Below, one piece after another: positions 36,064-59,440 of a stretch of DNA of 64,000 nt. Source of the DNA: a virus. Taxonomy: Duplodnaviria; Caudoviricetes. The stretch lies in IMG/VR virus record IMGVR_UViG_3300027754_000035, one strand, 5' to 3'. Each line of letters begins with the position of its first letter. The stretch's first letter is position 1. The notes under the pieces were generated by a model. The model was not told where the DNA came from. It saw nothing but the letters and a program-made list of their open reading frames with translations, and ran no database searches. The position numbers and the translations under genes are program-made.

Positions 36064-36750
36064 ATGCCTAAGAAATACGATATAGTAATTCCGCAACGTG
36101 ATCCACAAAATACCAAATTTGTGGAGCGTATTATTTCTGGGTCCAATTTGTTTTTGGCTACAGATCCGCAAGGTAAATTGATTGGTACCGATAATTTACC
36201 ACCATTCAACATATCTGGAAGTAGTATCAGTGCATCAGCACTGTTTGTTCAGGGTAAAACAGATCTACGAGGACCGTTGGTAGCAACCAGTGGATCGTTT
36301 ACCAATATAGTTTTTAATCCAGGCGCACCAGCACCAATCAACAGCAATTCGTATGGTATGCCTGGCGAATTAAGAACCGACAATAATTTTTTGTATCTGT
36401 TTTTGAACAATAAATGGAGACGTGCGCCGTTCAATTTGGATTTTTATGATACACCAAGTGTAACTCCAAGTGTAACTCCAAGTGTAACAGTTACACCAAC
36501 TAGAACTGCAACACCAAGTGTAACACCAACTAGAACTGCAACACCAAGTGTAACTGCAACACCAACTAGAACTGCAACACCAAGTGTAACTGCAACACCT
36601 AGCTTGACTGCAACACCAAGTGTAACACCAACTAGAACTGCAACTCCAAGTGTAACTGCAACTCCGAGCTTAACTGCAACTCCGAGCTTAACTGCAACTC
36701 CGAGCTTAACAGCTACTCCAAGTGTAACACCAAGCACATCTACTCCGTAA
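36064..36750 (+). CDS. Putative virion fibre/decoration protein with C-terminal Thr/Pro/Ser mucin-like tail
   Basis: G.PGELRTDNNFLYL...NKWRR motif typical of fibre modules; [14 protein letters not shown] repeats; late motif upstream. Confidence 0.65.
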   Translation: MPKKYDIVIPQRDPQNTKFVERIISGSNLFLATDPQGKLIGTDNLPPFNISGSSISASALFVQGKTDLRGPLVATSGSFTNIVFNPGAPAPINSNSYGMPGELRTDNNFLYLFLNNKWRRAPFNLDFYDTPSVTPSVTPSVTVTPTRTATPSVTPTRTATPSVTATPTRTATPSVTATPSLTATPSVTPTRTATPSVTATPSLTATPSLTATPSLTATPSVTPSTSTP

Positions 36751-46532: not shown

Positions 46533-47486
46533 TTATAAATATGATCTAATAGTTGCATCCAAAGCATCATTCCACGGAGTTAACTTAAATGTTGGAAACT
46601 CTAATTCAAAGTCTTTGGTGTCAATAGCATATCGTAAATCGTGACCTTTACGATCTTCAACATATTGAAACCAATTTTCGTTTACCTTTGTATTGGTAAT
46701 ATTTTCGTATGTCGATTTGAGACAATGAATCAAATCATAATTGGTTAGTTCCATATTACCACCAATCAAGTATTGTTTTCCAGATGTACCTTCCAGCAAT
46801 ACTTTTATCAATGCATTAACATGATCTTTTACGTAAATCCAATCTCTTATGTTCTGACCTGTACCATACAAAGGTATTGGTTGATTATTCTTGAGACGTT
46901 GTATACACAACGGTATCATTTTTTCGGGAAACTGTCTTGGTCCAAAATTGTTGCTGCAATTGGTTATCACAGCTGGTAGTTTGTGAGTTTGCACATAACT
47001 ACGCACCAACAAGTCACTGGCAGCTTTACTTGCTGCATATGGACTGTTGGGTCTATATGGACTATCCACACTGAATGCCAGTTCTTTGTCGTTCAACGTA
47101 CCATATACTTCGTCGGTCGAAACGTGTACAAATTTTCTGATGAGTTGCCGTGCGGATTTTATTGCCTCCAGAAGTTTGTGAGTGCCAACAATATTTGTAT
47201 AAATGAACGGTGCTGAATCGTTTATACTGTTATCAACGTGACTTTCAGCAGCAAAGTGAACAATGTGATTGATAGAGTATGAATCAATAATTTTTTCTAA
47301 TCGATCTTTACTGATATCCAGTTGCCAATGAATATAGCGAGGATCTTTTTCAAAACTTAAATTTCGATTGGCTGCATATGTCATGGAATCGATATTGACC
47401 ACGGTTTCAACATCGTTGCGTTTCAAAATTTCTTCTATGAAATGTGAACCTATAAATCCACAACCACCTGTTACTAGTAATCTCAT
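46533..47486 (-). CDS. rfbB: dTDP-glucose 4,6-dehydratase
   Basis: LVTGGCGFIGS, HFAAESHVDNSI, HVSTDEVYG, PNSPYAASKA, NCSNNFGP.QFPEK, RDWIYVKDH, DRKGHDLRY. Confidence 0.96.
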   Translation of the reverse strand: MRLLVTGGCGFIGSHFIEEILKRNDVETVVNIDSMTYAANRNLSFEKDPRYIHWQLDISKDRLEKIIDSYSINHIVHFAAESHVDNSINDSAPFIYTNIVGTHKLLEAIKSARQLIRKFVHVSTDEVYGTLNDKELAFSVDSPYRPNSPYAASKAASDLLVRSYVQTHKLPAVITNCSNNFGPRQFPEKMIPLCIQRLKNNQPIPLYGTGQNIRDWIYVKDHVNALIKVLLEGTSGKQYLIGGNMELTNYDLIHCLKSTYENITNTKVNENWFQYVEDRKGHDLRYAIDTKDFELEFPTFKLTPWNDALDATIRSYL

Positions 47487-48352
47487 GTGGTTGTCCAATT
47501 CGTTAAACATTGATCTATAGCTTCATTTACACTTCGCATTTTGATGCCCGTGGCTAGTAGTTTGCTGTTGTCCATCACACAATTGCTGCGTGGGGTTTTG
47601 GCAAAGTGCTGATACAGTTCGGCCTCGTCAATCAATTCAAATTTGTGATCTTTGGCAATGGTCTGTTGCAACTTCTTGACCAATGCGTCGGTGGTGATGT
47701 AGCCAGTGTTGGTCACGTTATAGATACCATATGGAACTTTCTTGTTGATGGTAGCAATACATGCCGATACAAACTCTTGTTTGTTTGAAATGCTATTTTC
47801 TGCTTGCAACAACTTCGGATATCGCAACATCTTGCTGATATAGTTTCGTGGACCATCGTTGTGGTCAAATGGAATTCTCAATCGCCAAATATAGCTCTTT
47901 TCCCACTTAGCCACAATTTTTTCCGCCATTGCTTTGGTGCCACTATAGAAACTACAATTGTTTTGTGTCCAACTAAAGTTTGGTACATCTTCTTCTGTGA
48001 ATCCACTACCATCTGGTTTTTTACCAGCGTAAATACAACCACTGCTAACATGCCCCAATGGAATATCATTGAGGATGCACCAATCAGTCAATATTGTGGG
48101 CCATACAATGTTGCCGTGTACAGCGGATTCTTTATCGAGTTCACAAGCATCCACATTGGGTTTGCCCGTGTATCCCGCCACGTTGATTGCTGCGTCAATA
48201 ATTGGATAGCCTACACTTTCATACCACTTTTCCAAGTCAGCAAATGTGGTTTTGTGTGTATCAGGCCAGAAGAAGGCAAGAGTGCCAGCGTCTTTTAGTT
48301 GTTGTGCGAATTCGCTACCGATATAGCCGTTTGCACCGAATAATATAATCAT
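47483..48352 (-). CDS. NRS/ER-type dTDP/UDP-4-keto-6-deoxyglucose epimerase-reductase (RmlD-like SDR)
   Basis: GANGYIG, AGYTGKPNVDACE, HVSSGCIY, SFYSGTKA, RLRIPF, PRSNCVMD..KL. Confidence 0.85.
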   Translation of the reverse strand: MIILFGANGYIGSEFAQQLKDAGTLAFFWPDTHKTTFADLEKWYESVGYPIIDAAINVAGYTGKPNVDACELDKESAVHGNIVWPTILTDWCILNDIPLGHVSSGCIYAGKKPDGSGFTEEDVPNFSWTQNNCSFYSGTKAMAEKIVAKWEKSYIWRLRIPFDHNDGPRNYISKMLRYPKLLQAENSISNKQEFVSACIATINKKVPYGIYNVTNTGYITTDALVKKLQQTIAKDHKFELIDEAELYQHFAKTPRSNCVMDNSKLLATGIKMRSVNEAIDQCLTNWTTT

Positions 48353-49194
48353 AGTATTAAATTTTGTAGATACGTTTTGTACTCACTTTTTGGTAAACTT
48401 TCAATTCTTTTTTGCAGCAGTTCATTGCTCATGAATCCTTTTCTGAGGCATTCTTCTTCAATACACCCCACTTTTATGCCTTGCCTTTCTTGCACAGTTT
48501 GAATATATGCACCACTCTGATACAATGTTTCTGGCGTTCCAGCATCTAGCCAAGCAGTTCCTCTTGGAAACTTGATGACATTGAGTTTCTTTTGTTGTAG
48601 GTATACGTTGTTGAGGTCTGTTATTTCCAGTTCTCCACGGGTGGATGGTTTGAGTTGACTTGCGTATTTCACGACATTGTTGTCATAAAAATAAAGACCC
48701 GGCACAGCATATTTGCTTTTGGGCATTGATGGTTTTTCTTGGATGCTGATTGCGCACCCATCGGCATCAAACTCCACAACTCCGTATGCACTGGGGTCGT
48801 TGACGTGGTAAGCGAAAATAACAGCACCATCCAGTACAGGTTTCATGTTGGCCATACCATGAAAGATGTTGTCGCCCAGAATCAACCCTACACTGTCATT
48901 TGCAATAAAGTCTTGAGCGATTAAAAATGCTTCGGCGATACCTCTGGGTTTGTATTGTATTTCGTATTTTATACTCAACCCAAACGCACTACCATCACCA
49001 AACAACTTTTCATATTTACCAATATCTTCTGGTGTACTGATGATACAAATCTCTCTGATACCGCACGTAATCAATGTGCTCAGAGGATAGTAAATCATTG
49101 GCTTATCGTACACAGGCAACAACTGTTTGTTGACGGTTTGTGTCAGTGGATATAAACGTGATCCTGTGCCGCCTGATAGAATGATTCCTTTCAT
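48349..49194 (-). CDS. rfbA: Glucose-1-phosphate thymidylyltransferase
   Basis: MKGIILSGGTGSRLYPLT..VNKQLLPVYDKPMIYYPL, LGDNIF, VPGLYFY, RGELEITD, AWLDAGT. Confidence 0.97.
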   Translation of the reverse strand: MKGIILSGGTGSRLYPLTQTVNKQLLPVYDKPMIYYPLSTLITCGIREICIISTPEDIGKYEKLFGDGSAFGLSIKYEIQYKPRGIAEAFLIAQDFIANDSVGLILGDNIFHGMANMKPVLDGAVIFAYHVNDPSAYGVVEFDADGCAISIQEKPSMPKSKYAVPGLYFYDNNVVKYASQLKPSTRGELEITDLNNVYLQQKKLNVIKFPRGTAWLDAGTPETLYQSGAYIQTVQERQGIKVGCIEEECLRKGFMSNELLQKRIESLPKSEYKTYLQNLIL

Positions 49195-49260
49195 AACTCT
49201 TTACTAATACATATCGGTTTATTATTACCGTTAGATTATTATAATTAGCTATATAAACGT

Positions 49261-50226
49261 GTGAATATTGAATATATAGCACAGTATGGTACCAGTGGAT
49301 ATGCCACAGCGGCCAAAGGCAACATACTGTATTTGTCTAATCATGGACACAACGTGTGTTTTGCTCCGCTCAAGTTTGACGATTCCAATATTGATCAGAA
49401 TTGTGAAGTGGATAAACTGGTTTGTGGTAAAATGAAACCTCTGAATAGTTATGATACCCAAATTTATCATACACTACCCAATCTCTGGCCGTTGATAAAA
49501 AGTAAAGTTAAAAAAGACTACTACACCAAACAAATCGGATATTGTACTTGGGAAACTAAAAAACTACCTATGGGTTGGGCTGCTGAAATCAACAAGATGG
49601 ATGAGTTGTGGGTACCCAGCACATTCAATCAAACATCATTTGTTGATTGTGGTGTGAACATACCAATACAGGTATTTCCTCACATATTTTTTGATCAAAA
49701 ATTGAAGACTCGAAGTGATGTTGTGTTGTATGATTATCGCAACAGAATAATACCCAATAACGTATACACATTCTATTGTGTGGCTGAGTTGGTTGATAGA
49801 AAAGGTGTGATTGATTTGTTGGAAACATACACACATTTCAATACCAAATACAGCCGGTGTCAATTGTTGCTCAAACTACATCACAAAAATTATTCATCGG
49901 AAAATATTAAGTTGGTACAAGACACCATATCCAAATATGGTGATAGTGTGTACTTAATCAGTAAAAATGTGACTAACCAAGAACTATTGGACATTCATAG
50001 CTTGGGTGATTGTTATATCAGCTTACATAGAGGCGAAGGATTTGGACTGAGCTTATACGATGCTGCGAACTATGGCAAAAAAATAATTGCTACCAACTAT
50101 GGTGGACCAGTTGATTATTTGAATGAGACTCACCACACAATTCCATATGTTATTTCAGGTGATTGGGCCTATCCAGATCTAGGAAAAGTAGCAGAGTCCA
50201 TGGAAATTTTATTTTGGTGTAATTGA
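49261..50226 (+). CDS. Glycosyltransferase, GT4-like (paralog of 2854-4272)
   Basis: QYGTSGYA, TWETKKLP..W, ELWVPS, RKG..DL, GDCYISLHRGEGFGL, WAYPDL. Confidence 0.88.
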   Translation: MNIEYIAQYGTSGYATAAKGNILYLSNHGHNVCFAPLKFDDSNIDQNCEVDKLVCGKMKPLNSYDTQIYHTLPNLWPLIKSKVKKDYYTKQIGYCTWETKKLPMGWAAEINKMDELWVPSTFNQTSFVDCGVNIPIQVFPHIFFDQKLKTRSDVVLYDYRNRIIPNNVYTFYCVAELVDRKGVIDLLETYTHFNTKYSRCQLLLKLHHKNYSSENIKLVQDTISKYGDSVYLISKNVTNQELLDIHSLGDCYISLHRGEGFGLSLYDAANYGKKIIATNYGGPVDYLNETHHTIPYVISGDWAYPDLGKVAESMEILFWCN

Positions 50227-50730: not shown

Positions 50731-51233
50731 ATAACAATACCATCACCAGATCCGCCATTCATTTGTACGCACACGCACTGCGACAAAACCGAGCCACAAT
50801 TATAGATGAATATACCCACCTTCTCGAAACTGAGTTGGGTAGAATGTTTCCTGCTCTTAAAGAAAAGAGTGAGGATGGAGTCCAAGATTGGGCATGTGAT
50901 ATACTCAATTGTGATTCCAAACAAGAAGTTGATGCCACACTGGATCGCATCAACGATATATTGACGCAACAAGCCAAAAATGGATGGGTGTGTGCGTTTT
51001 GTGGCAAAAATACATACGACATGGACTCAGATTATCTTTTTGGTACAAATCACATTAATTGCGCTTTGGAAGAAGATATCAAGAACAGAGCACATTCAGA
51101 TCCTGATTATGTTCTTGATCCTCGCCGCAGAAAACTCTGTGAATTGGAAAAACAAATCGCAGAGTTGCAGAATACTCTGAATAATATCAAAGCCGAACAT
51201 CACGAACCATATCATCACGAACCAACAAATTAA
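50727..51233 (+). CDS. Hypothetical protein with CxxC...HxxC zinc finger
   Basis: WVCAFCGK...HINC; ATGA overlap. Confidence 0.6.
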   Translation: MNNNTITRSAIHLYAHALRQNRATIIDEYTHLLETELGRMFPALKEKSEDGVQDWACDILNCDSKQEVDATLDRINDILTQQAKNGWVCAFCGKNTYDMDSDYLFGTNHINCALEEDIKNRAHSDPDYVLDPRRRKLCELEKQIAELQNTLNNIKAEHHEPYHHEPTN

Positions 51234-51598
51234 TGTTGCACATGCTCGGCAAACACAAACCGTTTCGTGCTGCATTACATAAGCGTAATGATCCCAAATC
51301 TAGGAAAGTCGTCAAAGAATATCTCAAAAAAACGATGTATTATTGTTATATTCTAAAATGTAGTGATAATACGCTATATTGCGGCTATACTAACAATATA
51401 GAAAAGCGTGTTTGTGTACATAATTCTGGTAAAGGTGCCAAATATACACAAAAAAGATTGCCGGTTCAATTGGTATATAATGAAGAATTTTTGACCAAAT
51501 CTGACGCAATGAAGCGGGAATATCAGATTAAACAACTGACCCGAGAACAAAAGATACAGTTGATAAAAAATGGACACAATACCAAATCTACCAATTAA
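51233..51598 (+). CDS. GIY-YIG nuclease (UPF0213-like); true start may be ATG 51335
   Basis: YCYILKCSD.TLYCGYTNN.EKR...HNSGKGAKYT..RLPV.LVY.E...SDA.KREYQIKQL. Confidence 0.9.
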   Translation: MLHMLGKHKPFRAALHKRNDPKSRKVVKEYLKKTMYYCYILKCSDNTLYCGYTNNIEKRVCVHNSGKGAKYTQKRLPVQLVYNEEFLTKSDAMKREYQIKQLTREQKIQLIKNGHNTKSTN

Positions 51599-51827
51599 AC
51601 GTTGGGTATTCGGACTACACACAGTTGGATTAACCACCGGCTCCGAATGGCTATATTTTTGTAGTGTTCATAGTTTTGACACACGCAATGAAGCTGTACA
51701 CTATTTACAAAATAATCGTGACTGGTGCGATCCAGATGCACACCCACACAGTGGTATATGTGAACTCAGCGACGAAGAATTGATATTTTACAACGATTAC
51801 TACACATCTTATGAACCTACTAGATAA
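51570..51827 (+). CDS. Hypothetical protein
   Basis: Packed ORF. Confidence 0.5.
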   Translation: MDTIPNLPIKRWVFGLHTVGLTTGSEWLYFCSVHSFDTRNEAVHYLQNNRDWCDPDAHPHSGICELSDEELIFYNDYYTSYEPTR

Positions 51828-51896
51828 AATTAAAGACAACTTTGTGAGTGCAGATATTACTGAGTTTTTTTCTAACTAACTACTTATGTATATAAT

Positions 51897-52175
51897 ATGA
51901 GTGGCAACAAACCCGACAAAAAAGTAACGGAACAATCAGAGCTTATTGCAACCCGCATACCCCCTGGAGATAGATGGACTCTCAAAAGTGATAGTCGCAA
52001 GATTATTCACAATAGTCTCACCGAGGTGTTGGAAGCATTCTATACAGAAACTCACTTCAAAGGCGACTATAGATTGTCGCCCGTGGGTAGTAAATTATAC
52101 ACTATTAAGTCGGTAGAAGAAGAAATTGTACCTGAGCCTCTCAAGACATTCAATATTTATGGTGATCCTGTATAG
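51897..52175 (+). CDS. Hypothetical protein
   Basis: Late motif CTACTTATG upstream. Confidence 0.65.
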   Translation: MSGNKPDKKVTEQSELIATRIPPGDRWTLKSDSRKIIHNSLTEVLEAFYTETHFKGDYRLSPVGSKLYTIKSVEEEIVPEPLKTFNIYGDPV

Positions 52176-52193
52176 TGCCCTCTATTTATAGGC

Positions 52194-54641
52194 ATGGCCG
52201 ACGTAGATTATAACGATTTACTAATTAAAGACAACTTTGTTGATTGGATGGATATCATTTCTAAAAATGATCCAGATCCTATTATTAGACAATCAGCAAA
52301 AGAGGTGGGATGGGCAGTAAATGGTAATTCACAAGTTAGTCCAAAACCATCATACAAATCGTTGTATGCGAAATATTCGTTTATAGTAGTTCCCATTAAA
52401 ACAGAAAATGGCCTAAAATCACAACTTTATTCTTATAACGGCCCGACCCGACAAAAATTCATTGGCATAATTTATGCCCCCGGCGTAGTATATGATTCCA
52501 ATTGCTGTGGACCATTACCAACACCCAGTGTAACCCCAACACCCAGTGTCACACCCACACCAAGTGTAACTCTGACCCCAACATCCAGTGTTACTCCTAC
52601 TGTTACACCAAGTTTGACACCAACAGCCAGTGTTACACCAAGCTCGACAGCCACACCAAGCTTGACACCAACGGCCAGTGTTACACCCACAGTAACCAGA
52701 ACCGTAACACCCAGCGTAACAGCTACTCCAAGTGTGACGGCAACACCCAGCGTAACAAAAACACCAAGTGTAACGCCAACAGTCACAAATACCGCAACAC
52801 CAACTGGAACAGCAACGCCCAGTGTAACTAAAACTCCAAGTGTGACGGCAACTCCTAGTCATACTGTGACGCCAACACATACCGCTACAGCAACTCAAAC
52901 TCCTAGTGTAACTCCAACCAAAACAATTACACCTAGTACCACAACAACTCCAAGCGTCACGCCTAGTCGCACAACTACACCAAGTTTAACACCAACACCA
53001 TCAATTACAAGATCGACTAGTGTAACACCAACTAAAACAGTAACACCAACCAGAACAACAACAGCTACTCCAAGCATCACAGCTACTCCAAGCATCACAG
53101 CTACACCAAGCGCAACTGGTAGTGGTACTCCAGGTTCCAGTGTGACACCAACACCAAGCATCACAGCTACTCCAAGCATCACAGCTACACCAAGCGCAAC
53201 TGGTAGTGGTACTCCAGGTTCCAGTGTGACACCAACACCAAGCATCACAGCTACACCTAGTGAAACACCAACACCAAGCATCACAGCTACTCCAAGCATC
53301 ACAGCTACACCAAGCGCAACTGGTAGTGGTACTCCAGGTTCCAGTGTGACACCAACACCAAGCATCACAGCTACACCTAGTGAAACACCAACACCAAGCA
53401 TCACAGCTACTCCAAGCATCACAGCTACACCAAGCGCAACTGGTAGTGGTACTCCAGGTTCCAGTGTGACACCAACACCAAGCATCACAGCTACACCTAG
53501 TGAAACACCAACACCAAGCATCACAGCTACTCCAAGCATCACAGCTACGCCAAGCGCAACTGGTAGTGGTACTCCAGGTTCCAGTGTGACACCAACACCA
53601 AGCATCACAGCTACACCTAGTGAAACACCAACACCAAGCATCACAGCTACTCCAAGCATCACAGCTACACCTAGTGAAACACCAACACCAAGCATCACAG
53701 CTACTCCTAGTGAAACACCAACACCAAGCATCACAGCTACACCTAGTGTGACAGCAACTAGAACAGCTACACCTAGTGAAACACCAACACCAAGCATCAC
53801 AGCTACTCCAAGCATCACAGCTACTCCAAGCATCACAGCTACACCAAGCATCACAGCTACTCCAAGCATCACAGCTACTCCAAGCATCACAGCTACACCA
53901 AGCATCACAGCTACACCAAGCATCACAGCTACACCTAGTGTGACAGCTACACCTAGTGTGACAGCAACTAGAACAGCGACGCCAAGCGCAACTGGTAGTG
54001 GTACTCCGGGTTCCAGTGTGACACCAACTAGAACAGCGACGCCAAGCGCAACTGGTAGTGGTACTCCGGGTTCCAGTGTGACACCAACTAGAACAACAAC
54101 ACCTAGCTTGACAGCTACACCCAGTGTAACTGCAACTCCAAGCTTGACACCGAGCAGTTCGGATACAACAACCGGATTATTTTATGTTGTTATTGCTGAT
54201 TTGCCTAGCACACAGAGTTTTTGTGTGACTCAACCTTCATGTGTAGACTTCCCAGACTGCACACCATGCTCCGATGCTGACCCTGTGCCTTATTGCCCAG
54301 GTAACATAACATACGCTTCGACTGTCAATGTTTATGGATCGTTGCCGGGGGCATATATGAATCTTGATCATGTTATTGATACATCAGCATCTTGTGGTAG
54401 TACAGCTACCAACACAGTAATGATTAAATTCAACAATAATTTCTTAACGGCGGCATCTGGTGACACTAACATAGCTTATCAATGCCATCGTACATTCCCA
54501 ACTTACAATATAAACGGTTGTTGTGATATTGGGGCGGACGATGTATACAAGACTTACGATGGTTTAAGTAGTCAAATCCAAAATGCTCAGACCTTTGGGC
54601 CTGGAACTGGAACGGTGGGCGACCCATATATCATCAATTAA
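52194..54641 (+). CDS. Mucin-like virion protein: shared N-terminal anchor, Thr/Pro/Ser stalk, Cys-rich tip
   Basis: N-terminal ~95 aa homologous to 54674; ~550 aa of TPSxTAT repeats; C-terminal domain with 9 Cys; late motif 3 nt before ATG. Confidence 0.75.
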   Translation: MADVDYNDLLIKDNFVDWMDIISKNDPDPIIRQSAKEVGWAVNGNSQVSPKPSYKSLYAKYSFIVVPIKTENGLKSQLYSYNGPTRQKFIGIIYAPGVVYDSNCCGPLPTPSVTPTPSVTPTPSVTLTPTSSVTPTVTPSLTPTASVTPSSTATPSLTPTASVTPTVTRTVTPSVTATPSVTATPSVTKTPSVTPTVTNTATPTGTATPSVTKTPSVTATPSHTVTPTHTATATQTPSVTPTKTITPSTTTTPSVTPSRTTTPSLTPTPSITRSTSVTPTKTVTPTRTTTATPSITATPSITATPSATGSGTPGSSVTPTPSITATPSITATPSATGSGTPGSSVTPTPSITATPSETPTPSITATPSITATPSATGSGTPGSSVTPTPSITATPSETPTPSITATPSITATPSATGSGTPGSSVTPTPSITATPSETPTPSITATPSITATPSATGSGTPGSSVTPTPSITATPSETPTPSITATPSITATPSETPTPSITATPSETPTPSITATPSVTATRTATPSETPTPSITATPSITATPSITATPSITATPSITATPSITATPSITATPSITATPSVTATPSVTATRTATPSATGSGTPGSSVTPTRTATPSATGSGTPGSSVTPTRTTTPSLTATPSVTATPSLTPSSSDTTTGLFYVVIADLPSTQSFCVTQPSCVDFPDCTPCSDADPVPYCPGNITYASTVNVYGSLPGAYMNLDHVIDTSASCGSTATNTVMIKFNNNFLTAASGDTNIAYQCHRTFPTYNINGCCDIGADDVYKTYDGLSSQIQNAQTFGPGTGTVGDPYIIN
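53154..53633 (+). repeat. Four tandem 120-bp in-frame repeats (40-aa unit)
   Basis: Sequence lines recur every 120 nt; one mismatch seen in copy 4. Confidence 0.9.
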
Positions 54642-54673
54642 TAAACAACTGATACCAAATACTATTTATTGAT

Positions 54674-57600
54674 ATGGCTAAAATGGATTATAACAGTCTT
54701 TTGAACAAGCAAAACTTTGTTGCTTGGATGTTGAGTATTGCGAGTGATGATCCAAATCCAACAATTAGACAGGCAGCCAAAGAAATTGGGTACGAAGCAA
54801 ATGGCAACAGTATTATTGGTCCAAAGCCTTATTACAATGCTTTGTATCTGAAATACAAATTCAAAGTTGCGCCAATTCAAACCGATAATGGTATACAAAC
54901 ACAACTGTTTGAATTGGTCGGAATAAATTATAGATCGGTAGGTATTATACGTACACCCACCATTATAAAGACTTTTGTTGCACCAGCACCTACACCATCA
55001 AGTTCGACTCCAGATCCTTCAGTAACACCGACAACCTCGCTAGATGTGTCAGCTACTCCAAGCGTCACAGTCACTCCAAGCGTCACAGTCACTCCAAGCA
55101 CTACAGCTACTCCAAACGCAACTGGCAGTGGTACTCCAGGTTCCAGTGTGACACCAACACCAAGCATCACAGCTACTCCAAGCATTACAGCCACACCAAG
55201 CTCGACAGCCACACCAAGCATCACAGCTACACCTAGCTTAACAGCAACTCCAAGCTTAACAGCAACACCTAGTGAAACTGCTACACCAAGCTTGACTGCA
55301 ACTCCAAGTGAAACAGCAACTCCAAGCTTGACAGCAACACCAAGTGAAACAGCAACAGCAAGCTTGACTGCAACTCCTAGCTTGACTGCAACTCCTAGCT
55401 TGACTGCAACTCCAAGCTTAACAGCAACTCCAAGCTTGACTGCAACTCCAAGCTTGACTGCAACACCAAGCTTGACTGCTACACCTAGTGAAACAGCAAC
55501 TCCAAGTGAAACAACAACAGCAAGCTTGACTGCTACACCAAGTGAAACAGTAACTCCAAGCTTGACTGCAACACCAAGCTTGACTGCTACACCTAGTGTG
55601 ACTGCTACACCTAGTGTGACTGCAACTCCAAGCTTGACTGCTACACCAAGCTTAACAGCAACTCCAAGTGAAACAGCAACTCCAAGCTTGACTGCTACTC
55701 CAAGTGAAACAGCAACTCCAAGCTTGACAGCAACTCCAAGCTTGACTGCTACACCAAGCTCGACAGTCACTCCAAGCTTGACACCAACTCCAAGCATTAC
55801 AGCTACACCAAGCATCACAGCCACACCAAGCATCACAGCTACACCAAGCACTACAGTCACACCAAGCTCGACAGCGACGCCAAGCTCGACAGTCACTCCA
55901 AGTCCAACTGTAACAGCAGTACCAGATTGGGGTCCAGTGTTCTTTGGTGGAGCGGCTTATGGCACAAACAGTACATCATTTGTTAAATCCTCCGGCACCG
56001 AAGGCTGGAACAGCAAAGTTTATTCCACTGTAGGTTACATAGACGGAGTGTCGGTTACGGCGCAATGTAATACTACTACTAATGCAGACGTGATGTTTGG
56101 TCTTAGTGTTGATCCAGCATCAACAGCACACGTTGATAATGAATATGTAAATCTTGATTATGCGTGGTGCTTCCTTGGCGGCACGTTGCAAATTTTTGAA
56201 AGCGGTGAGAATGCGTACAGCTACGGTGCTTATACCGCCAGCACAGTTCTTAACATTACTTATGATGGTACAAATGTAAAATACTACAAAGATGGTACAT
56301 TAGCTAGAACTGTGCAACGTGACGATCTACGTTTAACACCACTGTATTTCAGCACTGCTTTCCACTATATCAATACAAGCATTGCATTAACAAATGTGGC
56401 GTTTGTTTCAGCACCCGGTGTGACACCAACACCAACACCCAGCGTCACCGCAACAGCAACAGCAACACCAACACCAAGTTTAACAGCAACTCCAACAGTT
56501 ACTCCAACAATCTCAGTTACACCAAGTGTGACACCAAGCTTAACAGCAACACCAAGTGTAACAGCAACAATCTCAGTCACACCAAGCTTAACAGCAACCC
56601 CAAGTGTAACAGCAACAACCTCAGTTACACCAAGCTCAACAGCAACACCAAGCTCAACACCAGACCCAAGCTTAACAGCAACACCTAGTGTGACAGCAAC
56701 ACCTAGTGTGACTGCTACACCTAGTGTGACTATTACTCCAAGCTCGACAGTCACTCCAAGCTTGACACCAACAGTATCAGTTACTCCAAGCTTGACACCA
56801 ACAGCATCAGTTACTCCAAGCTTAACAGCAACAGCATCAGTTACTCCAAGCTTAACAGCAACACCAAGCTCAACACCAGAACCAAGCTTAACAGCAACAC
56901 CAAGCTTGACAGCTACGCCGAGCTTGACACCAAGTCCAACTGTGACAGCGGTACCAGATTGGGGTCCAGTGTTCTTTGGTGGAGCGGCTTATGGCACAAA
57001 CAGTACATCGTTTACTAAAACCAGCGGAACGAATGGTTGGAACAGCAAAGTTTATTCAACGTTGGCTTACACAGGTGGAGCGTCGGTTACGGCGCAAACG
57101 AATACCACTGCTGGTATCTCGATGTTTGGTCTTAGTGTTGATCCAGCATCAACAGCACATGTCAACAGTGAATATGCTAATATTGATTATGGATGGTACC
57201 TCGAGCCCGCCGGCGGCGATGGTCTGTACATTTGGGAAAGCGGTGTGTACGTGGGTAGCTTCGGTGCTTATACAGTCAACACAATTCTTAATGTTATTTA
57301 TGATGGTGCTAATGTAAGATATTACAAAGACGGTGTATTAGCTAGAACTGTGCAACGTGACGATCTAAGGTCAACACCACTGTATTTCATTGCTACTTCC
57401 TATTATGTGGACGCAACCAGAGCAATAACAGATGTGACGTTTGTTTCAGCACCAAGTGTGACACCAACACCAACACCCAGCGTCACCGCAACAGCAACAG
57501 CAACACCAACACCAAGCGTCACAGCCACACCAAGCGTCACAGCCACACCAAGCTTGACACCAACTCCAAGCACTACAGCCACACCAAGCACTACAGTCAC

Positions 57601-59338
57601 ACCGAGCGTCACAGCCACACCAAGCACTACAGTCACACCAAGCGTCACAGCCACACCAAGCTTGACACCAACCCCAAGTCCAACTGTGACAGCGGTACCA
57701 AGTTGGGGACCAGTGTTCTTTGGTGGGGCCGCTTATGGTGCAAATAGTACATCATTTACTAAATCCTCCGGCACCGAAGGCTGGAACAGCAAAGTTTATT
57801 CCACTGTGGCTTACACAGGTGGAGTATCAATCACAGCACAAGCTACTGGAACCTATACTACGTTTATGTTTGGTCTTAGTGTTGATCCAGCATCAACAGC
57901 ACACGTTGATGAATATGCTAATATTGATTATGCTTGGTTCTTGCCCGGAAGCAGTGGTTACAGCGCACGAATTTATGAAAGCGGCATCGACGTTGGCGTT
58001 GACTTCGGCATTTATACATCCAGTACAGTTTTTAATGTTACGTATGATGGTGCTAATGTAAGATATTACAAAGATGGTGTATTAGCTAGAACTGTGCTAC
58101 GTGACGATCTAAGGTCAACACCACTGTATTTCATATTCACGCCTTATCATATCAATACAAGCATTGCATTAACAGATGTGGCATTTGTTTCAGTACCAAG
58201 TGTGACACCAACACCAACAGTTACACCTAGTGTGACTGCAACTCCAAGCTTGACACCAACAGTTACTCCAAGCTCAACAGCAACTCCAAGCTTGACACCA
58301 ACAGCATCAGTCACACCAAGCTTGACGGCCACACCAAGCTTAACAGCAACTCCAAGTGAAACAGCAACTCCAAGCTTGACTGCTACTCCAAGTGAAACAG
58401 CAACTCCAAGTGAAACAGCAACAGCAAGCTTGACTGCTACACCTAGCTTGACTGCAACACCAACAGTATCAGTTACTCCAAGCTTGACACCAACAGCATC
58501 AGTTACACCTAGTGTGACACCAACAAAGACAGTTACACCTAGCTTGACACCAACACCTCCAGCACCAAGTGTGACACCAACAAAGACAGTTACACCTAGC
58601 TTGACACCAACAAAGACTGCAACTCCAACAGTTACACCAACCCCAAGTCCAACTGTGACAGCGGTACCAAGTTGGGGACCAGTGTTCTTTGGTGGTGCTG
58701 CTTATGGTACAAACAGCACATCGTTTGCTAAACCCAGCGGCACCCAGGGCAGCAACAGCAAAGTTTATTCCACGGTGGCTTACACAGGCGGAGCATCAAC
58801 CACAGCACAACTTGCTGGCGTACTCGGCGCGGCCTTTGGTCTTAGTGTCAATCCAGCATCAACAGCACACGTTAACCTTGAATATGCTAATATGGATTAT
58901 GGTTGGTACTGCAACGGCACCTACGCGGGCGGGATGTTGATGATGGAAAGTGGCAACAACCAAGGTGGCGTTACTTGGACAGCCGGCGCTGTTTTTAACA
59001 TTACTTATGATGGTGCCAACGTAAGATACTACAAAGACGGTGTATTACAAAGAACTGTGCTACGTACCGATCTACGCTCAACACCATTGTATTTCATGTG
59101 TACTTCATATGGAGTTGACGCAACCAATTTACAAACGGATGTGGCATTTGTATCGATACCAAGTGTGACACCAACTCCAACAGTTACTCCAAGCATCACG
59201 GCAACACCTAGTGTGACACCAACAAAGACAGCCACACCTAGTGTGACACCAACAAAGACAGCTACTCCAAGCTTGACACCAACAGTCACTCCAAGCTTGA
59301 CACCAACACCAAGTGTGACGCCAACACCAGGTATTTGA
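54674..59338 (+). CDS. Mucin-like adhesin: N-terminal anchor plus four ConA/SPRY-like beta-sandwich domains separated by Thr/Pro/Ser stalks
   Basis: Four ~165-aa repeats (WGPVFFGG...GWNSKVYS...FGLS...DYxW...[11 protein letters not shown]...LYF) at about 55919, 56951, 57695 and 58664. Confidence 0.78.
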
Positions 59339-59440
59339 TGTTGGGTGATGTGGTGACAACAGATTCTGCGGCAATTCAAACTGTGACCAACAACAATTCA
59401 GTACAACATAAAGTTGAAAAACCGTTCTAATCGTTATAAA

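Follow-up and report, generated by a model that had tools for sequence, protein, structure and literature searches.

Phage receptor-binding proteins (RBPs) of modular build, both tailspikes and tail fibres, combine an N-terminal anchor that is conserved with a C-terminal specificity module that can be exchanged, as in the RBPs of Klebsiella phages (PMC8262889) and E. coli O-antigen tailspikes (PMC10408124). A comparable design was found in a 64,000-nt stretch of DNA from an uncultured lake phage (Duplodnaviria; Caudoviricetes; IMG/VR record IMGVR_UViG_3300027754_000035), which is referred to below as the window. Two adjacent genes lie head to tail on its plus strand, gene A (P0001, 815 aa, 52194–54641) and gene B (P0002, 1554 aa, 54674–59338), exactly where an earlier reading made from the letters alone (the sequence-only reading) had placed them. 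They probably encode modular adhesins displayed on the virion, in which a constant anchor, the N-domain, carries a swappable cassette of stalk plus head. Like modular RBPs, genes A and B have a constant N-terminal and a variable C-terminal module with breakpoints at the border between the two, and the anchor is common to adjacent paralogues. Unlike modular RBPs, the anchor appears to be of a different fold and family, unmatched in our searches, the shaft is a 300–550-residue low-complexity proline/threonine/serine (PTS) stalk rather than a trimeric beta-helix or coiled coil, gene B has four lectin-like domains in series, and the proteins would be attached to the capsid or the tail. The design of conserved anchor and swappable module is already known; new features are the family of the anchor, the great length of the PTS stalk and the arrangement of lectin domains in series.

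Three further systems invite comparison. Decorations of the T4 Hoc type are dispensable, surface-exposed, monomer-like arrays of adhesins on a large myovirus; their Ig-like (immunoglobulin-like) nature was reportedly described by Fraser et al. in 2006, and a model of adherence to mucus is said to go back to Barr et al. in 2013. Some proteins with the N-domain likewise carry tandem Ig-like domains (Big_13). Unlike the products of genes A and B, however, Hoc binds the capsid by a C-terminal domain and has no PTS stalk, and no similarity of sequence or fold was found between Hoc and the N-domain. The combination of tandem Ig domains with a C-terminal capsid-binding domain is not that of genes A and B, which encode no Ig domain and have their conserved module at the N terminus. 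Virus-encoded glycosylation of virion proteins is familiar from Mimivirus fibrils and chlorovirus capsid glycans. Among phages, mycobacteriophage capsid and tail-tube glycans are described as products of phage enzymes (Freeman et al. 2023, PMC10527164, as cited in PMC12619734). As in those systems, nucleotide-sugar and glycosyltransferase genes of the virus adjoin the candidate surface proteins of the window, whereas the candidate acceptor is here a mucin-like repeat stalk rather than a capsid C terminus or a giant-virus fibril protein. Secreted glycoside hydrolases of bacteria have extended, often O-glycosylated Pro/Thr (PT) linkers between carbohydrate-binding modules (CBMs) and catalytic domains, and genes A and B resemble them in placing Pro/Thr-rich stretches between beta-sandwich domains of lectin-like or CBM type. 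Unlike these Sec/Tat-secreted enzymes, they are phage-encoded and without a signal peptide, their linkers are many times longer, and they begin with a domain of docking type. Our literature searches turned up no report of bacteriophage virions that bear stalk proteins of a mucin-like kind.

The two N-domains (aa 1–100 of each protein; 52194–52493 in gene A and 54674–54973 in gene B, both on the plus strand) were 47% identical over the first ~100 residues by BLASTP (E 9e-37) and 51% identical in a MAFFT alignment, in agreement with the sequence-only reading, which had noticed a domain of ~95 aa common to the two genes. Both were also recovered by a profile hidden Markov model (HMM), with E 9.5e-35 for N-domain A. 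A six-frame HMM scan of the window revealed these two copies and no third, and neither gene showed in its sequence a signal peptide or membrane segment for export. Long open reading frames (ORFs) on the minus strand over the repeats (e.g. 52895–53926) were considered as coding sequences and set aside as by-products of the repeats, the plus frame being continuous from N-domain to heads.

Past the N-domain both proteins turn into long stalks. Stalk A (aa ~105–655, 52506–54158, +) is made of tandem repeats with 34% Thr, 19% Pro and 17% Ser. In the stalks of both genes Pro, Thr and Ser together account for 63–83% of residues per 30-residue window, and PTS sequence takes up 555 aa of gene A and, with all segments added up, about 765 aa of gene B; each is a long tandem-repeat region dominated by these three residues, as is characteristic of mucin-type PTS domains. 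The stalk DNA is built of 18- to 240-nt tandem units, among them a 120-nt unit of stalk A present in 4.4 copies at 99% identity (53145–53671, +), a degree of likeness that indicates very recent repeat expansion. The length of stalk A is probably polymorphic. Mucin-like chains span ~0.25 nm per residue, and by analogy the stalks could exceed 100 nm if extended. Gene A ends in a tip of 160 residues with 10 Cys (aa 656–815, 54159–54638, +), for which no Pfam or PHROG family was found, a word-index protein search was empty, and all fold comparisons in the ESM Atlas gave template modelling (TM) scores <0.5. A Cys-Cys pair was also observed between N-domain and stalk of gene A (window 52497–52502, listed as aa 104–105), with counterparts in the same junction of the gene A allele of a close strain (L008, described below) and of two other N-domain proteins (P0005 and P0014); one or two Cys occupy this position in P0020, P0025 and P0026. 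The pair could be a cross-linking site.

To find relatives, a profile built from N-domains A and B was used in an exhaustive search of 1.84 billion representative proteins, which yielded 30 family members at E<=1e-3. The match began at residues 1–14 in all of them but the weakest, which is probably spurious. The family surfaced solely in this exhaustive profile search: a word-index protein search with the N-domain returned nothing, no Pfam or PHROG family fitted it, and IMG/VR gave no match with three differing queries and patterns, nor with an exact 42-mer of gene B. In most members a PTS or PT-rich stretch directly follows the N-domain, and unrelated modules come after it. PTS stalks with several unrelated heads were seen in P0005, P0014 and P0018, and in P0015 the head behind the PTS stalk is 38% identical to tip A. 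Tandem Big_13 domains occur in P0007, P0008 and P0012, which have no PTS stretch, while leucine-rich repeats (LRRs; P0028 and P0030) and a calcineurin-like phosphoesterase (Metallophos; P0021) stand behind short Pro-rich linkers. Binding and enzymatic modules of these kinds are usual on phage appendages. The search for further genes with this domain, which the sequence-only reading had proposed, thus returned a family that is always N-terminal and has unrelated cargo behind it. Two smaller points concern its C-terminal parts: P0008, P0015 and P0023 have unrelated cargo yet end in a similar short tail (..ID.LIstL), which genes A and B lack, and a serine protease suspected by eye in P0010 (GDSGSP) was unconfirmed by Pfam and PDB sequence searches and is not claimed.

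A maximum-likelihood tree of 31 N-domains, with modest support for its deep branches owing to its ~100 alignment columns, placed similar cargo on scattered branches. The number of changes equalled the number of rows for each type of cargo (Cys-rich tip, 3 changes for 3 rows; Ig, 3; LRR, 2), and P0015, with its A-type head, fell in the other main clade than gene A. Genes A and B were sister paralogues (support 92/84), which points to a local tandem duplication followed by a change of cargo.

The same separation of anchor and cargo was seen between close genomes. L008, a syntenic contig of 7990 nt found in a metagenome scan, represents a close strain whose flanking genes are 90–92% identical in DNA to those of the window. 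N-domain A is 89% identical to its counterpart in aa sequence and N-domain B 96%, the latter with 98–100% DNA identity over most of the domain (93–100% over 54667–54966). Within ~30 nt past each N-domain, from ~52,490 and ~54,970, DNA identity falls from the 92–100% of the N-domains to 55–70%, the level of the repeat background, and it returns to high values at the starts of the following genes, ~54,660 and ~59,430. In L008, gene A' encodes 529 aa with a shorter and different stalk, and its tip aligns to tip A at two edges only (FY..QP.C...P.CT.C and GCC...GTV..PY.I); gene B' encodes 547 aa, comprising an N-domain and stalk and no lectin domain. Because L008 was assembled from short metagenome reads and its DNA is highly repetitive, its internal stalk structure may be misassembled; breakpoints at the unique edges of the N-domains and in unique heads are less likely to be artefacts. 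Conserved N-terminal domains with unrelated C-terminal parts, among paralogues as well as relatives, and mosaic breakpoints at the anchor/cargo boundary between close genomes are both characteristic of appendage proteins. The sequence-only reading had proposed a constant docking module with exchangeable tips and had named fixed anchor–tip pairings across relatives as the contrary outcome; what the comparison of tip repertoires across strains revealed was the opposite of fixed pairing, since L008 keeps both N-domains with stalk and head replaced.

Further alleles were seen in sequencing runs of other freshwater studies. Contigs of run X4 (7 differences in 1087 nt) and of run X5 (18 differences) pass from tip A into N-domain B, the same junction that the window has, and also span parts of the lectin-like domains (G domains) of gene B. 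In further contigs of X4, X5 and X6, 20 other letters lie between stalk sequence and the downstream gene, which starts to match at 59433, a 3' arrangement that differs from the window and from L008; at least three allelic forms therefore circulate. Parts left uncovered in X5 and X6 were not read as absence unless a contig joined across them. In X6 both flanks (left, to 51810; right, from 59433) are present at ~230x depth and nothing with at least 88% likeness was found over gene A in window 51802–55112, a gap not counted as absence; gene A may be very different or missing in that strain.

These differences might also have arisen with no exchange at all, stalk and head changing very rapidly where they stand, by slippage, by unequal crossing-over and under diversifying selection, behind a constrained N-domain. 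We regard this as unlikely. The faint likeness that tips A and A' retain at both edges is what such evolution would leave, and the recent internal amplification of the 120-nt unit is a case of it. The contrast in rates is harder to accommodate: flanks and N-domains differ by only 0–10% in DNA, yet the heads can hardly be aligned at all and four whole domains are missing from gene B', which is too sharp for clock-like divergence. In addition, the Cys-rich head occurs on the P0015 N-domain, from the other major clade.

Sequence shared between the two stalks of the window bears on the same question. As the sequence-only reading had reported for about 53115 and 55121, the stalks have a near-identical block of DNA, here delimited as 65 nt with one mismatch (53115–53179 in gene A, 55121–55185 in gene B; longest exact run 59 nt; 0 expected from 100 shuffles). 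In frame, the patch comprises 28 identical aa (53112–53195 and 55118–55201, both +), and in gene B it holds the sole copy of an 11-residue unit. The patch stretches to about 110 nt at ~92% identity, compared with 65–74% for the stalk background, and only one such patch was found. Identical codons are used at 25 of its 28 positions, compared with 15 predicted from stalk codon usage, and the chance of all codons being identical is 10^-8.1. The N-domains are 62% identical in DNA and have the same codon at only 22 of 47 identical residues; because of this difference the patch must be younger than the duplication of the N-domain. Evolution in place would make the patch a relic of the tandem duplication, with which its being single agrees and its codons, for the same reason, do not. 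From its sequence, the patch suggests instead that the two stalks have recombined with each other or undergone gene conversion.

Exchange of cassettes, as we favour it, leaves the repeats with part of the role assigned to them by the sequence-only reading, which saw them as recombination joints for swapping tips. The young A/B patch and the position of the 5' breakpoints at the start of the repeats agree with that role, while the inter-strain 3' breakpoints lie outside the repeats, either in intergenic DNA that is unique or in the gene that follows. From these positions the cassette is flanked 5' by the N-domain and first repeats and 3' by whatever conserved sequence comes next. Homologous recombination could find its 5' homology in the conserved N-domain together with the early repeats of the stalk and its 3' homology in the next conserved gene, and stalk length could be altered separately through slippage or unequal crossing-over inside the repeats; we infer this mechanism from the breakpoints and the patch.

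The cargo of gene B differs in plan from that of gene A. An anchor, a stalk and a terminal tip unrelated to that of its neighbour, as predicted for both genes by the sequence-only reading, describe gene A well; gene B instead has four globular domains in series and ends in a stalk tail. On the plus strand, stalk segment 1 (aa 102–411, 310 residues, 54977–55906), rich in tandem repeats, is followed by lectin-like domain G1 (aa 412–582, 55907–56419), segment 2 (aa 583–755, 173 residues, 56420–56938), G2 (aa 756–928, 56939–57457), segment 3 (aa 929–1003, 75 residues, 57458–57682), G3 (aa 1004–1176, 57683–58201), segment 4 (aa 1177–1326, 150 residues, 58202–58651), G4 (aa 1327–1497, 58652–59164) and a C-terminal PTS tail (aa 1498–1554, 57 residues, 59165–59335). 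The four domains, ~170 aa each, are 63–72% identical in pairwise comparisons. An AlphaFold2 (AF2) model of G1 (predicted local distance difference test, pLDDT, 85.7) has 14 strands in a two-sheet jelly-roll beta-sandwich. Foldseek matched it to a legume-lectin domain (7elv, E 3.1e-6, TM 0.61), CBM66 (4b1m) and the L-type lectins Emp46p and VIP36, and the G domains are accordingly modelled as having the concanavalin A-like lectin/glucanase fold. No Pfam family matched them, and their identity to the matched lectin and CBM structures is only 7–15%. Sugar binding by these domains would be in keeping with the predicted fold.

Relatives of the G domains provide the main link to virus particles. Two of them matched phrog_19691, annotated as virion structural protein (E 7.3e-17 and 4.3e-13), with matches spanning only profile positions ~137–270 of 623, which indicates a common domain rather than full-length membership. 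A G domain is also 35% identical to part of a 555-aa gene product of Cellulophaga phage phiST that is annotated as virion structural protein and whose gene adjoins four further structural genes. Two to three tandem copies, without PTS linkers, occur near the C terminus of 1400–1600-aa proteins (P0034, at 10001–14803 of contig L007, P0035 and P0036), for no part of which a Pfam family was found. One of these has its gene in a structural module of siphovirus type, downstream of genes for capsid, connector and tail completion and one of tape-measure size, and ahead of the lysis genes, where distal tail or host-specificity proteins are encoded. A further relative, 66% identical to gene B, was observed on a 6443-nt ENA contig (P0033) as a 440-aa lectin-stalk-lectin ORF without N-domain. 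This ORF begins within a stalk, with the upstream gene on the opposite strand, and represents either a form without anchor or an assembly error.

By analogy with these virion and tail proteins, N-domain proteins would dock to the virion. The N-domain would be a constant plug that docks each protein to a fixed site on the capsid or tail, and the PTS segments would be extended, flexible spacers that hold the binding heads far from the particle. In gene B the heads would be the four concanavalin A-type lectin-like domains, in gene A the small Cys-rich tip, and the stalks would probably be O-glycosylated by the sugar enzymes of the phage itself. At the population level the plug and flanking genes would stay constant while the cassette of stalk plus head is replaced or remodelled.

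Several observations weigh against this explanation. Searches with four family members as queries found no match to the N-domain in 50,697 GenBank phage records; given this absence no proteomics applies to the family. The N-domain has an AF2 model of good quality (pLDDT 85.8), predicted as four helices packed on a three-stranded sheet, for which fold searches of PDB and BFVD with Foldseek, of VIA-align wide and of the ESM Atlas gave nothing convincing, and in these searches it resembled no known capsid- or tail-binding domain. A prediction of a three-copy complex scored 0.00 and was taken neither for nor against binding. Glycosylation of the stalks is circumstantial, being suggested by their composition and their sugar-gene neighbourhood; that neighbourhood is one of accessory sugar metabolism and not a structural gene block; and the missing lectin domains of gene B' could partly be an assembly artefact.

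Some of these points would be expected if the proteins were not part of the virion. Made in the infected cell, they could be released at lysis or adhere to the cell or to debris from it, and could there serve as soluble decoys of glycoprotein, as glue or as lectins, with the N-domain binding a host partner or a non-structural phage partner. The location of the genes among auxiliary sugar-metabolism genes, an N-domain that in the fold searches resembled no known virion-binding fold, and the relative on the P0033 contig, with no N-domain there, would all suit such a function. It nevertheless seems improbable to us, since those relatives of the lectin-like domains that have annotation or context are virion or tail proteins, a constant N-terminus with a variable C-terminus and strain-level turnover of the cassette is the signature of particle-anchored host-recognition proteins, and no signal peptide or membrane segment for export is present.

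The surrounding sugar genes also suggest another role for the N-domain, as a handle recognised by phage glycosyltransferases or by a chaperone, comparable with leaders by which modifying enzymes are recruited, and not as a structural anchor. The PTS or PT-rich stretch directly behind the domain in most family members and the richness of the window in glycosyltransferases are in line with this. We consider it very unlikely, however, because PTS sequence is entirely absent from the Ig-array members (P0007, P0008 and P0012), no more than a short Pro-rich linker follows the domain in the LRR and phosphoesterase members, and a third PTS protein of the window has no N-domain. This third protein (36064–36750, +, 228 aa) has a globular N-terminal part of 128 residues unrelated to the N-domain and a Pro/Thr/Ser tail of 100 residues that reaches the stop codon, and its ORF is preceded by a TATTTAT motif.

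If the N-domain does dock to the virion as a structural anchor, it would be a new and small anchor (~95 residues) with a natural tolerance for cargoes as different as Ig arrays, LRRs, lectins and enzymes, a property wanted for phage display and for the retargeting of phages in laboratory strains. Genes A and B would in that case also encode, as far as our literature searches reached, the first bacteriophage appendage on a mucin-like stalk beside its own sugar-making genes, and virus-encoded protein glycosylation would reach beyond giant viruses and mycobacteriophages. More speculatively, and with the chances rather against it, the N-domain could fit, as a universal plug, into a single fixed socket on the particles found in a group of uncultured aquatic phages, by which any binding or enzymatic module is mounted on a sugar-coated, mucin-like tether, perhaps more than 100 nm long, and swapped between strains; the phage would thereby have a “glycocalyx” of lectins that varies and makes the first contact with hosts or particles. 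The strain-level turnover of the cassette marks the locus as a likely hot spot of host or particle recognition in an abundant lake phage.

No relative among GenBank phages was found by megablast of 12 kb or by tblastn of the SNF2 helicase, and the window DNA or a near-identical relative was present in freshwater metagenomes of 12 studies. G+C content is 36–41% outside the gene A/B region and 44–46% within it. The ORFs are dense and often overlapping, with PHROG matches to endolysin, SNF2-type helicase and glycosyltransferases, and a tRNA scan found no tRNA genes in the 64 kb. The neighbouring sugar genes (46533–50226, mixed strands) encode a 4,6-dehydratase-type enzyme, an RmlD-like reductase and a sugar-1-P nucleotidyltransferase on the minus strand and a GT1-type glycosyltransferase on the plus strand; farther upstream of genes A and B lie genes for GDP-mannose dehydratase, UDP-galactopyranose mutase and additional transferases.

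The motif CTATTTAT precedes both genes on the plus strand (52182–52189 and 54662–54669), in each case 4 nt before the ATG, and a looser TATTTAT was observed 3–15 nt before many other starts (15099, 25349, 26687, 36041, 44176 and 44862). These motifs may be a promoter or translation-start signal of the phage. The orientation of the TATTTAT-type signal is opposite to that of the T4 late promoter TATAAATA, which is absent in sense orientation upstream of genes A and B. Lastly, L008 (1660–2148, compared with window 51233–51598) has an extra ORF of 162 aa directly before a GIY-YIG gene, and in the window the first ~30 codons of its counterpart are fused into the GIY-YIG ORF. This insertion/deletion polymorphism adjoins a gene of homing-endonuclease type (GIY-YIG) 600 nt upstream of the variable locus.

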